From positions 1,140,001 to 1,172,000 of the forward strand of contig NZ_RSDW01000001.1 in NCBI RefSeq assembly GCF_003945235.1: a stretch of 32,000 bases of DNA, written 5' to 3'. Shown here piece by piece: positions 1,374 through 25,119 of the stretch. Under the pieces are notes generated by a model. That model ran no database searches, was not told where the DNA came from, and was given only the letters and a program-made list of their open reading frames with translations. Position 1 is the first letter of the stretch. Every line of letters starts with the position of its first letter. The stretch is from Edaphobacter aggregans. Its GTDB lineage: Bacteria; Acidobacteriota; Terriglobia; Terriglobales; Acidobacteriaceae. The translations under genes and the position numbers were made by a program.

Positions 1374-1403
1374 TTCCCAATTGCACTCGTCACACTATAT
1401 AAA
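1374..1403 (+). promoter_or_regulatory. Candidate sigma70-type promoter for the PL22/GH2 genes
   Basis: TTCCCA (1374-1379), an 18-nt spacer, then TATAAA (1398-1403), about 80 nt upstream of the ATG at 1482. Motif match only. Confidence 0.2.
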
Positions 1404-1481
1404 TCTCTCGTGCCCAGGAATCTCAGCCGCCCCTCTCTGAACTCCTCCGCGCAAAGACACAGTCTCAGGAGCACCCAGCCG

Positions 1482-22008: not shown

Positions 22009-23307
22009 ATGAAGACTCTCGTCGGTGCTCTCGCTCTCGTGTCTGTGGCGGTAACCTCTCTTGCCCAAGCTCCCGCCGCGGCAAAACCAGCCTTCGTGCT
22101 CCACGCTGCACGGATGCTCGATGTCTCCGCTGGAAAGATCATCACACCCGGCGAAGTTCTCGTCGAAGGCGAGCGCATCACCGCCGCAGGCCCCAACGTA
22201 GCGCACCCAGCCGGCGCTAAGGTCATCGACCTTGGCGACACGACCCTGATGCCAGGCTTGATCGACGCCCACGTGCACCTCTTCCTCCATCCCGGAGCCG
22301 AAGACCTGCAAACCGTCGAAGAGAGCGTCCCGCAGCGAACACTGATCGCCGCCGACGCCGCAAGGCTCGACCTCCTCGCAGGCTTCACTGCCGAGCGCGA
22401 CATGGGCACCGAAGGCGCAGGCTGTGCCGATGTAGCCGTACGCAACGCCATCAACTCCGGCCTGATCCTCGGCCCCCGCATGCGCATGAGCTGCAACGCT
22501 GTCGACATCCTTGGAGGCCACGAAGACGCAAACGATTTCAATCCGGCGCAACACGTACTCTCGAACGCCGACTACGCAAACTCACTCCAGCAGCTAGTCG
22601 AAGTCATCCGCCAGCAGCGCAAAGACGGAGCCGACTTCACTAAGATCTACGAAACCGGACCAGACTCCCTCCACAACGGAGTCTTCCAAACGCCCTACCA
22701 ATACACCGAAGCCGAACTAGCAGCCGCCGTAGCCGAAGCCGCACGCACAGGCGGAGACCGCACCTCCGGACGAGGAGTAGCAGTCCACGCCACGGGAGAG
22801 CCCGGCACAGGCTACGCCGTAGCAGCAGGTGTCGCCTCCGTCGACCACGCTTACCAGCTAAGCGACGCCACGATGAAGGCGATGCACGACAAGGAGATCT
22901 ACGCCGTCCCCACCTTCGCCATCGCCGAGTACTTCGCCGACCAGGCCGCCACACCCGAACGCGCCGCCTATCTCCGCGGCGAGCAGGCCTACCACGCCGC
23001 CGAGTTCAAAAAACAGATGGCCATAGGCGTTCCCTTCGCCGTAGGCAGCGACGTAGGTCCCTTCCCACACGGCACACAAGCCCGCGAGATGGAACTGATG
23101 GTTGAGTACGGCATGAAACCAGCGGATGTCCTCCGCGCAGATCTACTCCATGGAGCGAAGCTACTCGGATGGGGCGGACAAATCGGCGAACTCAAACCCA
23201 GTTACTACGCAGACATCATCGCAGTCCAGGGCAACCCACTGGACGACATCTCGACCCTACGCAAAGTCACCTTCGTTATGAAGAACGGCGCAGTCGTAAA
23301 GCAGTAG
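22009..23307 (+). CDS. Amidohydrolase family protein (metal-dependent hydrolase), secreted
   Basis: The ATG at 22009 gives the signal peptide MKTLVGALALVSVAVTSLAQA. Metal-binding LIDAHVHLF (HxH) and a C-terminal GSD...ADIIAV..NPL motif are present. Confidence 0.85.
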   Translation: MKTLVGALALVSVAVTSLAQAPAAAKPAFVLHAARMLDVSAGKIITPGEVLVEGERITAAGPNVAHPAGAKVIDLGDTTLMPGLIDAHVHLFLHPGAEDLQTVEESVPQRTLIAADAARLDLLAGFTAERDMGTEGAGCADVAVRNAINSGLILGPRMRMSCNAVDILGGHEDANDFNPAQHVLSNADYANSLQQLVEVIRQQRKDGADFTKIYETGPDSLHNGVFQTPYQYTEAELAAAVAEAARTGGDRTSGRGVAVHATGEPGTGYAVAAGVASVDHAYQLSDATMKAMHDKEIYAVPTFAIAEYFADQAATPERAAYLRGEQAYHAAEFKKQMAIGVPFAVGSDVGPFPHGTQAREMELMVEYGMKPADVLRADLLHGAKLLGWGGQIGELKPSYYADIIAVQGNPLDDISTLRKVTFVMKNGAVVKQ

Positions 23308-25119
23308 CTACCCGGCCTTCTCGGTCAACTCAGCCCACCGCGCATAGAGTCGATCCGCCTCTTCCTGCGCGACTTCCATCTCGGCGAGCGCTGCCGTCAG
23401 CTTCGTCGCATCCGTTGCCACGATAGGATCTTCAACCTTCGCCCTCGCTGCCTGAAGCTTTTCTTCAGCAGCCTCCACCGAAGCCTCGATCCCCGCAAAC
23501 TCCCGAGCCTCCAGATACGACAGCTTCTTCTTCCCTGCTGGCGCAGAAGGCGACGTCACCGAAGCGACTGCCTTTCCTGTATTCCCGGGAGCAATCGGCT
23601 CCTCCACCGCCACCCCTCGCCACTGCTCCCACTGGGAGTAGTCCGCGAAGGTCTCCGCTCCACCTTTTCCGTCGAGCCCTAAGACGATGGTCGAGACGCG
23701 GTCGAGCATGTAGCGGTCGTGGGTTACCAGAACCAGAGCGCCTGTGTACTCGAGCAGGCTCTCTTCGAGGATCTCCAGCGTCGCAATATCCAAATCGTTC
23801 GTCGGCTCGTCGAGTAGCAGCAGGTCGGCAGGCTCCAGCATCAGCTTTGCGATCAGAACGCGGGCGCGCTCTCCACCGCTCAGCCGCTCGACTGGTTGAT
23901 TTAACTGCTCGCTGGTGAAGAGGAATTTTGTGGCGTAGCTAGCTACGTGAATCACGCGACCCTGATAGACCACCGAGTCCGAATCGGGGGCGAGCGCTCG
24001 GCGCAGCGTCACACCTTCTTCGAGCTCGCGTGTCTGGCTGAAGTAGACGATCTTGAGTGAGGCAGCTTTCTTCACTTCACCCGCGGAAGCCGCTAGTTCG
24101 CCGGTCAGGAGGCGCAGGAGTGTGGTCTTTCCGCTGCCGTTCGGCCCTACTAAGCCGACGCGCATGCCGTTGGCGATCAGGAAATTCAACCCTTCGACGA
24201 TCTTGCGATCACCGAGCGTGATGCTGACGTCTTCCAACTCAACCAAGCGCTTCGTCTGTCTGTCGGTCGCCGAGAAGTCGATTCCTGCCGTCGAAGTCTG
24301 CACACGTGCGTTCACGTCTTTCAATTGGCCGATCAACTCGTGGGCGTTGTCGATGCGTGCCTTTGCCTTCGTTGCTCTGGCCTTGGGTCCCCGACGCAGC
24401 CATTCGACTTCGGTTTTTACTCGGTTTTTCAGCGATTCCTGCAGCTTTGATTGCGCCTCTAGATACGCTTGTTTGCCTTCGATGAACTTCGAGTAGGTTC
24501 CTTTCACGCGCAGCAGGCCGTCGGCGTAGACACGGTTCAGTTCGACTATTTCCGTCGCAACATTCTCAAGAAAATAACGATCATGGCTGACCAGAACACA
24601 AGCAAAATCACCCTCATTCAGAAGCTCCTCGAGCCAGACGATTCCGGCTAAATCCAGGTGATTTGTCGGCTCGTCGAGCAGAAGCACGTCGGGGTGCGTT
24701 ACGACGGCCTCTGCTATCGCCAGGCGTTTTCGCCAGCCTCCGCTGAGCTTCGCAGCCTGGGCGTCGAGCGTGGGGAATCCTACCCGGCCGCTGGTCTCGC
24801 GTAATCTGCCTTCGCGTTCGGCTTCTGCGATGCTGCCTTGCTTTAGTGCGGCTTCGAGGACGTCGCGGATGGTAAGGCCTGGGGCGAAGTCCGACTCCTG
24901 CTTTACGTAGGCGATGCGGGCGCGCTTGCGCACGGCGACGTCCCCTGCGTCGGCATCTTCTTCTCCTGCAAGGACTTTCAGCAAGGTGCTCTTGCCTGCT
25001 CCGTTCGGCCCGATCAGGCCGATGCGGTCGCCGTCGGAGACGGTGAAGGAGATTTCGCGAAACAGAGCCGTGGCGCCAAAGGCCTTGGTCAACCCCTGCG
25101 CATTTAAGATTGGTGGCAT
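23308..25119 (-). CDS. ABC-F family ATPase (Uup-like, two ABC domains plus a C-terminal coiled-coil tail)
   Basis: Two Walker A sites (GPNGAGKST, GPNGSGKTT) and two signature motifs (LSGGWRKR, LSGGERAR). No transmembrane domain. The tail is rich in Ala and Glu. Confidence 0.92.
   Translation of the reverse strand: MPPILNAQGLTKAFGATALFREISFTVSDGDRIGLIGPNGAGKSTLLKVLAGEEDADAGDVAVRKRARIAYVKQESDFAPGLTIRDVLEAALKQGSIAEAEREGRLRETSGRVGFPTLDAQAAKLSGGWRKRLAIAEAVVTHPDVLLLDEPTNHLDLAGIVWLEELLNEGDFACVLVSHDRYFLENVATEIVELNRVYADGLLRVKGTYSKFIEGKQAYLEAQSKLQESLKNRVKTEVEWLRRGPKARATKAKARIDNAHELIGQLKDVNARVQTSTAGIDFSATDRQTKRLVELEDVSITLGDRKIVEGLNFLIANGMRVGLVGPNGSGKTTLLRLLTGELAASAGEVKKAASLKIVYFSQTRELEEGVTLRRALAPDSDSVVYQGRVIHVASYATKFLFTSEQLNQPVERLSGGERARVLIAKLMLEPADLLLLDEPTNDLDIATLEILEESLLEYTGALVLVTHDRYMLDRVSTIVLGLDGKGGAETFADYSQWEQWRGVAVEEPIAPGNTGKAVASVTSPSAPAGKKKLSYLEAREFAGIEASVEAAEEKLQAARAKVEDPIVATDATKLTAALAEMEVAQEEADRLYARWAELTEKAG

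Follow-up and report, generated by a model that had tools for sequence, protein, structure and literature searches.

We analysed a 32,000-nucleotide stretch of the Edaphobacter aggregans contig NZ_RSDW01000001.1, referred to here as the window, in which the DNA strand that carries a gene sets its synonymous codons and, less strongly, its amino acids. The window is ordinary chromosomal DNA of the Acidobacteriaceae (Edaphobacter/Tunturiibacter/Granulicella group). Its best relatives come from Granulicella, Edaphobacter and Tunturiibacter at 78-84% protein identity, every long open reading frame (ORF) with a high-GC coding signature has a Pfam match, and the neighbourhood looks chromosomal. The G+C content is 60%, and the plus strand contains 12029 C, 7300 G, 6888 A and 5783 T.

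The genes, named from Pfam matches unless stated otherwise, fall into blocks of alternating orientation. The first block (1410-8896, plus strand) includes a PL22-like polysaccharide lyase (1410-2930), a GH2 protein (3013-5469), a BlaI-like repressor (5571-6008) read from an ORF under the 150-aa cut-off of our first ORF listing, the BlaR1/M56 gene downstream of it (6014-7327) and HtrA (7331-8896). Six minus-strand genes follow at 9013-15495, namely an acyl-CoA dehydrogenase (acd, 9013-10170), a Cys/Met pyridoxal phosphate-dependent enzyme (10615-11787), a DUF1801 protein (11798-12271), a PALP/CysK-like protein (12298-13215) and two VWA proteins (13215-14372 and 14356-15495). The plus-strand block at 15739-23307 consists of DUF1015 (15739-17094), amidase_3 (17389-18192), GerM (18189-18818), murI (18928-19866), an EVE-domain gene ending at 20285, fabI (20591-21352), a DinB-family gene (21387-21974) and an amidohydrolase (22009-23307). 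The amidohydrolase converges on an intact ABC-F ATPase gene (23308-25119, minus), with no spacer between the two stops (23307/23308). Beyond it lie a 102-aa ORF (25328-25636, minus), an ECF sigma factor (25799-26437, minus), bshC (26958-28610, minus), a NUDIX gene (28722-29366, plus), a CspA-type cold-shock gene between NUDIX and polX, also under the 150-aa cut-off (29501-29713, plus), polX (29750-31582, plus) and the start of a further plus-strand gene that reaches the window end at 32000; bshC and polX pass their NCBIfam cut-offs. Two antisense ORFs (5649-6029 and 29333-29809) are probably spurious, and no tRNA genes were found in the window. We considered the NUDIX gene as a MutT and rejected it, as it resembles ADP-sugar pyrophosphatases, below their cut-offs, and offers no mechanistic lead.

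Between 1400 and 23650 the plus strand carries 8920 C and 4627 G, 4873 A and 3831 T, corresponding to a GC skew of -0.317, an AT skew of +0.120 and a (G-C)/N of -0.193. Taken kilobase by kilobase, the GC skew lies between -0.18 and -0.49 over 1-23 kb, stays near zero over 24-30 kb and then turns negative again. An earlier reading made from the sequence only had proposed, partly from hand counts over four 60-nt segments, that the plus strand is rich in C and A at synonymous sites whichever way the genes point. Those counts are exact (18001-18060, C33 G7 A13 T7; 12601-12660, C30 G9; 13441-13500, C27 G10; 9061-9120, C25 G11). At the four-fold degenerate sites of 1400-23307 we counted 1816 C, 240 G, 307 A and 238 T in plus-strand genes (about 70% C, up to 87%) and 730 G, 109 C, 154 T and 89 A in minus-strand genes (about 67% G, up to 76%). 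Between the two orientations, C versus G has an odds ratio of 50.7, with p below machine precision, which bears out the proposal for C and the predicted flip of synonymous GC skew with orientation. For A it holds only loosely, with an odds ratio of 2.2 for A versus T (p=3e-7); this component is weaker and uneven among genes, and T exceeds A at the four-fold sites of DUF1015, HtrA and polX.

The pattern is seen gene by gene. On the coding strand, four-fold GC skew lies between -0.54 and -0.90 in all plus-strand genes of 1.4-23.3 kb (-0.54 to -0.86 in the block at 1410-8896 and -0.62 to -0.90 in that at 15739-23307) and between +0.55 and +0.83 in all minus-strand genes at 9013-15495. Read on the plus strand, the latter values become -0.55 to -0.83, the same sign as in the plus-strand genes. 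Four-fold sites number A7 C13 G142 T25 in acd and A8 C215 G11 T14 in DUF1015. The glycine codon GGG accounts for 3 of 283 Gly codons (1%) in plus-strand genes versus 116 of 206 (56%) in minus-strand genes, and the preferences within GCC/GCG, ACC/ACG, GTC/GTG, CTC/CTG, CGC/CGG and GAC/GAT all reverse between the two sets. Codon choices that had been read by eye in single genes were also correct: GGC makes up 21 of 22 Gly codons in DUF1015, GGG makes up 33 of 48 in acd, and the amidohydrolase uses A-ending GTA (11), GCA (17), GGA (13) and CTA (6).

Two-fold sites behave in the same way, C/(C+T) being 0.89 in plus-strand and 0.34 in minus-strand genes and G/(A+G) 0.60 and 0.88, respectively. Intergenic DNA of 1.4-23.3 kb has a GC skew of -0.25 and an AT skew of +0.16. 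Since plus-strand genes, minus-strand genes and intergenic DNA share one sign, the bias belongs to the strand and not to the genes or their proteins; it is mutational in nature and independent of gene orientation. At the left edge of the window, a partial gene with Ig-like/MBG domains (232-1200) has a third-position skew of just -0.14, far below that of the genes after it, and the weak skew at 1-1400 may mark another edge of the skewed domain.

Strand skew among related loci

A protein-guided scan of species-representative genomes gave 80 reference loci, all from Acidobacteriaceae, with up to 84% identity and from genera including Granulicella, Edaphobacter, Tunturiibacter, Terracidiphilus and Terriglobus. 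A metagenome scan gave 80 further loci with at most 82% protein identity. Related loci, many of them metagenome-assembled, are given L-numbers here. The comparison with orthologs in related Terriglobia, suggested along with the original proposal, revealed that strand skew varies widely and that orthologs flip. A Granulicella chromosome (L036) has a GC skew of -0.39 over 21 kb; the value is -0.35 for L001 and -0.27 for the isolate Tunturiibacter psychrotolerans X4BP1 (L003). Skew is about 0 in Terracidiphilus and Terriglobus and positive, at +0.14 to +0.24, in L009, L011, L021 and L061. Three loci (L001, L028 and L036) are uniformly skewed over 21 kb. Four-fold skew reaches 0.8-0.95, at which one base occupies roughly 70-87% of four-fold sites, and the magnitude of the skew varies among lineages from 0 to about 0.9 within this one family. 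The effect is present in the isolates T. psychrotolerans X4BP1, Edaphobacter paludis JP55 (L163) and Edaphobacter albus (L171), and is therefore not an artefact of metagenome assembly.

In the 123 loci with enough sites, the plus-strand four-fold skew estimated from plus-strand genes agrees with that estimated from minus-strand genes (r=0.86). Across loci the strand component takes values between -0.88 and +0.73; the gene-intrinsic, coding-strand component averages only -0.08. Orthologs swap codon sets between genomes, as would be expected if, as had been proposed, codon usage is set by the strand rather than by the gene: the skew of DUF1015 runs from -0.90 in L036 to +0.61 in L021, and the amidohydrolase, C-rich in the window (plus strand), is G-rich in L003, L004, L034 and L019, where it is inverted. 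The window copy of this gene has a weaker skew (-0.62) and unusually many A-ending codons, yet, although inverted relative to those four loci, it has the codon set of its present strand. Proteins are affected as well. Among orthologs, first- and second-position skew and the content of Gly+Val+Trp versus Pro+Thr+His+Gln vary with synonymous skew. The correlation (r) is 0.4-0.7 in most tested genes, fabI excepted, and kinship among the sequences makes the p-values optimistic.

An unskewed patch at 23.6-30.3 kb

The earlier reading had put the end of the skewed region at 23650, and we found a change point in agreement with it at about 23,635. From there a 6.6-kb patch without strand skew (23636-30283) covers the remainder of the ABC-F gene to 25119, the 102-aa ORF, the ECF sigma factor, bshC, NUDIX and cold-shock genes and the 5' part of polX. 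Its plus-strand four-fold GC skew is -0.29 to +0.20, its intergenic skew is +0.09, and its four-fold G+C is 0.70-0.73 versus 0.83-0.91 in skewed genes. The left edge falls inside the intact ABC-F gene (permutation p=0.002), where the G fraction among plus-strand third-position G/C sites is 0.14 to the left of 23635 and 0.58 to the right. The 3' end of this minus-strand gene (23308-23635, about 110 codons) is still skewed, with a G-rich coding strand (G34 C9 in the last 110 codons). The right edge, at about 30,283, lies inside polX (p=0.016), and in the 3' two-thirds of polX and the start of the next gene (30284-32000) the strong C-rich skew of the plus strand is back, with 60-site bins of -0.53 to -0.80.

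The same genes are found in the same order and fully skewed in L001, L008 and L034. The closest relatives, found through the ABC-F protein at 92-93% identity, are L169, L168 and L161. Gene order in L169 is that of the window, L161 matches over the shared region, and L168 matches in and near the patch. Equivalents of the patch occupy 2278-11824 in L169, 1803-11812 in L168 and 3448-11824 in L161, with skews in ABC-F and bshC of +0.08 and -0.05, +0.01 and +0.23, and -0.26 and -0.50 (reversed), respectively. The flanks in L169 are as skewed as those in the window, and the internal gradient within ABC-F is identical in the window, L169 and L168. As it is reproduced in four independent assemblies, the patch is real and inherited rather than the product of chimeric assembly.

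Edges inside intact conserved genes fit homologous replacement better than inversion or insertion. We also considered a horizontally acquired island and rejected it; the patch is atypical in composition, but its core genes are syntenic in relatives and it has no tRNA and no integrase. The ranking of relatives at the protein level is the same inside and outside the patch. Compared with L161, the plus strand of both the window and L169 has shifted towards C, G having become C at 63 of 316 sites and C having become G at only 23 of 182. The patch looks like a recombination import with reversed skew, about half re-equilibrated. Segments that recombine or invert would keep their old imprint for a while, which would account for the unskewed patch. 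At the rates fitted below, relaxation would require about half a substitution per equilibrium site, and the divergence between the window and L169 is estimated to allow only about half relaxation per lineage, such that a patch entering their common ancestor with reversed skew would be near zero today.

The stretch between ABC-F and bshC varies in gene content (window 25119-26958; L169 8334-9284; L168 7071-7853; L162 3425-4510). In the window it holds the ECF sigma factor. An IS481-family transposase is added in L169 and one more gene, of 260 aa, in L168, and in L162 the ECF sigma factor is replaced by YjbR and DUF4396 genes. DNA identity between L162 and the window is about 70% in bshC and 85% in ABC-F, and this gap, together with the variable gene content, indicates mosaic ancestry.

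Substitution asymmetry and its cause

On the plus strand of the skewed region, the C fraction of pyrimidines at two-fold sites is 0.88-0.89 and the G fraction of purines 0.34-0.60, versus 0.69 for both in the unskewed patch. Pyrimidines make up 76-79% of plus-strand four-fold sites, where A, G and T are each present at close to 10%. Transitions leave the purine/pyrimidine balance of a strand unchanged, and deamination alone therefore cannot give this pyrimidine excess. We fitted non-reversible likelihood models to the four-fold sites of orthologs in sets of three taxa, a design chosen because the closest skewed pairs have 89-94% DNA identity. In all seven skewed triples, changes on the C-rich strand were asymmetric in the same direction: A>C exceeds T>G, G>T exceeds C>A, and T>C exceeds A>G. 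G>A exceeds C>T and G>C exceeds C>G in six of the seven. The median ratio over the seven triples is near 5 for A>C/T>G and near 4 for G>T/C>A, and unskewed control triples were symmetric.

Summed over six skewed triples, the log-likelihood (lnL) was -14301.6 for a strand-symmetric model, -12885.7 when only transitions were asymmetric, -12840.7 when only transversions were, -12774.3 with one factor acting on all five classes, and -12751.0 with six free factors. The one-factor model beats the transition-only model, which has the same number of parameters, by 111 lnL units and recovers 98.5% of the six-factor gain. The factor is 2.7-4.5 in skewed triples and 1.02 and 1.39 in unskewed controls. 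For the window and its two closest long relatives (1112 sites), lnL was -3429.4 for the symmetric, -3135.3 for the transition-only, -3107.3 for the one-factor and -3100.6 for the six-factor model. Here the one-factor model leads the transition-only model by 28 lnL, its factor is 3.17, and all six free factors exceed 1. Five substitution classes thus share an asymmetry factor.

The overall best explanation, to which we give a probability of about 0.7, is a strand-asymmetric mutational equilibrium arising from a gap in fidelity tied to replication. Whichever way the genes point, unconstrained sites on one strand would drift to about 70-87% C, and those on the complementary strand to G, for tens of kilobases. 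Five changes (A>C, G>T, G>A, T>C and G>C) exceed their complementary changes on the C-rich strand, by a similar factor of about 3. These five favoured changes correspond to G-containing mispairs (T·G, G·T, A·G, G·A and G·G) formed while the G-rich strand is nascent, and the complementary changes would require C-containing mispairs. Among polymerase errors, G-containing mispairs are commoner than C-containing ones. The G-rich strand would accordingly be synthesized several-fold less accurately than its partner, or be less well corrected by mismatch repair.

The skew is probably linked to replication direction, given that it is uniform over tens of kilobases across gene orientations, reverses sign between genomes, switches sharply at synteny breaks and combines G excess with T excess. 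In the window and in related loci the G-rich strand is also T-rich, like most bacterial leading strands, which hints that it may be the leading strand here. According to PMC11354219, the chromosome of E. paludis JP55 is oriented after its oriC, and our locus lies at 3.01-3.04 of 4.32 Mb (70%) in CP121195.1 with a C-rich top strand, which fits a G-rich leading strand. If the G-rich strand does lead, about 60% of the window genes would be head-on to replication. We looked for leading-strand information in the related loci from dnaA, dif-like sites (up to 6 mismatches allowed), rRNA, essential-gene motifs and tRNA orientation (only 5 tRNAs) and obtained none, and Pfam matches at the points of skew switching included no origin or terminus genes. 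The plasmids of Granulicella tundricola were tried as a readout of the leading strand at a known repA and set aside, one (pACIX905) being without skew and the other (pACIX901) a patchwork.

Several observations weigh against a replication-tied fidelity gap. The fits assume stationarity and neutral four-fold sites in triples that are fairly diverged (p-distance 0.3-0.45), and the mispair argument draws on general knowledge of polymerases rather than on data from these organisms. The oriC call in E. paludis may itself derive from skew; the top strand of T. psychrotolerans is G-rich at 65% of the record, which fits only if the record start is not the origin; and dnaA, dif-like sites, rRNA operons, origins and termini were all missing from the related loci examined. 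A cysK-DUF1015-murI-TamB-BamA domain, at least 22 kb long, shows a skew of about zero in E. albus, E. modestus, an E. flagellatus-like genome and L174 (5300-21356 in L171, E. albus CP060393.1; 5300-21356 in L173, E. modestus; 5300-19800 in L172; 5900-24374 in L174), and acd and its neighbours adjoining this domain reach +/-0.8, with the same sign beyond it. The species that carry the domain are saturated at four-fold sites (p 0.53-0.72), and for this reason both the skewed and the unskewed state look stable. A termination zone was considered for this domain and rejected, since the far flank, reached through L174, a close relative of E. albus, has the same sign. In L161 (ena ERZ25039562 contig_33484, 4098-25921), the coding strand is C-rich in each of the 19 called genes, whatever its orientation, so that in this one relative the strand skew reverses with gene direction; the switch from plus to minus in this locus lies at a synteny break beside amiC, with fragmented epimerase ORFs. 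The G. tundricola megaplasmid pACIX901 (NC_015057.1 1-200000; L164-L167) is a patchwork in which GC skew runs from +0.39 to -0.37 in stretches of 5-25 kb, with unskewed DNA between them, and the 115-kb conjugative plasmid pACIX905 of the same strain (NC_015060.1; L175-L177) has no skew, which suggests that skewed segments move between replicons.

These observations bring in a rival, which we consider unlikely but keep in play, that the asymmetry belongs to DNA domains rather than to replichores, through either a domain-limited process or the exchange of segments that carry a donor's imprint. Diverged Edaphobacter species have in common sharp-edged unskewed domains beside strongly skewed genes, the patch of the window is common to L169, L168 and L161, and the two plasmids differ as described. 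In addition, the sign switches abruptly in 6 of the 80 reference loci of twenty kb (at about 11380 in L010, 15734 in L017, 16650 in L020 and 10136 in L031, L032 and L033), always from minus to plus in DUF1015 orientation, which is too often for an origin and a terminus alone. The switch in L020 is next to a tRNA-Arg, those in L010 and L031-L033 are at synteny breaks, and that in L017 lies beside fabI, where a GGDEF gene is inserted into a gene order that is conserved otherwise. Relatedness is also mosaic, fabI being closest to L034, DinB to L008, and L162 differing between bshC and ABC-F as noted above. However, where a locus has at least one strongly skewed gene, the values of strand skew for single genes form one peak at 0.7-0.8 and no separate one at zero, only about 9% of 490 genes being at or below zero; L001, L028 and L036 are uniformly skewed over their 21 kb; and exchange alone makes no skew, so that some lineage must generate it. 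Single-strand deamination of C and A during replication, the cause originally proposed, is in our judgement quite improbable as the main one. The transition asymmetry that it predicts is there at two-fold sites, GC and AT skews are opposite in sign as it expects, and transition-only asymmetry recovers most of the likelihood gain, which is the part of the proposal that stands. As the main cause it fails on the pyrimidine excess and on the deficits of 111 and 28 lnL to the model with all five classes; moreover, T is little enriched on the G-rich strand, four-fold GC rises with skew, and transversions are as asymmetric as transitions, their own asymmetries being consistent across the seven triples. 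Damage to C on one strand combined with an extra T>G process would be expected to give the same substitution pattern as the fidelity gap.

A pattern linked to the genes themselves, through transcription-associated mutation or translational selection, might be read into the small coding-strand preference for C (mean -0.08) and into the 19 uniformly C-rich genes of L161. It is very hard to sustain against six adjacent minus-strand genes whose codon sets are opposite to those of seventeen plus-strand genes, skewed intergenic DNA, orthologs that switch codon sets and the agreement of plus- and minus-gene estimates across 123 loci; deamination of the non-transcribed strand would, in any case, give G-rich and not C-rich coding strands. 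We attach next to no weight to the idea that the pattern is an artefact of sequencing or assembly, or that the contig is chimeric. Metagenome assembly did produce many of the related sequences, and conserved genes such as those that hold the patch edges are places where chimeric joins could arise, but the same skew is found in finished isolate genomes and in more than 100 independent assemblies, the patch recurs in four independent assemblies with the same ABC-F gradient, and all genes are intact and syntenic.

Known systems and implications

Strand-specific codon usage is a known kind of phenomenon, described in Borrelia burgdorferi, Treponema pallidum, Chlamydia, Buchnera, Blochmannia, Bartonella, Tropheryma, Lawsonia and Ehrlichia (PMC2671203, PMC3023944). 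As in those cases, the two strands here have separate codon usages that stem from a strand-linked mutational bias, with G and T enriched on one of them. The known cases are host-associated bacteria with small genomes, whereas the genomes concerned here are free-living, about 4-6 Mb in size and 55-66% G+C. In organisms of the Borrelia and Treponema type, G+C content is mostly low and skew less pronounced. Like ordinary replication skew, the bias in the window is independent of gene orientation, is seen at third positions and in non-coding DNA, and pairs T excess with G excess. Ordinary bacterial skew is small, typically around 2.5%, and the origin of GC skew is "not yet satisfactorily explained" (SkewDB, PMC8941118), while (G-C)/N is 19% over 22 kb here; the contention that the effect lies far above ordinary bacterial skew, and in a high-GC genome, was well founded. 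In a 2015 survey of 1111 genomes, the mean strand bias of Acidobacteria was 0.009, among the lowest of 24 phyla (PMC4613354).

Mitochondrial genomes offer strand asymmetry of comparable magnitude at neutral sites and likewise with effects on protein composition, and the opposition of G+T to A+C matches the vertebrate pattern. In vertebrate mitochondrial DNA, A and C are both enriched on one strand through transitions. Mitochondrial genomes are small and have unusual replication modes, whereas in our loci C is the only dominant base and transversions show as much asymmetry as transitions. The mitogenome of Galdieria sulphuraria, with a GC skew of 0.74, has been called the most skewed of any genome (PMC4316638). 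As for mechanism, unequal fidelity of leading- and lagging-strand replication was reportedly found in Escherichia coli by Fijalkowska et al. in 1998. This would be an analogous mechanism, in which errors on one nascent strand persist more often. E. coli, however, has only a weak compositional skew, and the asymmetry that substitutions point to here is about threefold, possibly more in the most skewed genomes.

In the literature that we searched, we found no description of extreme skew in Acidobacteriaceae, and genome papers mention GC skew in figure legends only. The strength of the effect in a free-living high-GC lineage, the across-the-board substitution asymmetry, the rapid variation within one family and the domain structure appear to be new. 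Tentatively, and with considerably more doubt than belief, we suggest that some Acidobacteriaceae evolved a gap of at least threefold in fidelity or mismatch repair that acts on all G-containing mispairs and nearly saturates neutral sites with G on one strand. Such a gap would have been gained, lost or tuned repeatedly in the family, and in some species it would act on sharply bounded domains, pointing to an undescribed strand-specific process or to local control of replication direction.

An ordinary skew of a few percent makes the components of strand asymmetry hard to separate, and this family spans the range from none to near saturation. Its members include culturable soil bacteria with finished isolate genomes (T. 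psychrotolerans, E. paludis, E. albus and E. modestus), which makes the question directly testable. Patches that are out of equilibrium, such as the one in the window, could be used as clocks for recombination and inversion events. In these abundant soil bacteria, amino-acid composition shifts with the skew, and codon-usage measures, gene finders, detectors of horizontal transfer, composition-based metagenome binning and phylogenies will be biased by the strand on which a gene lies.

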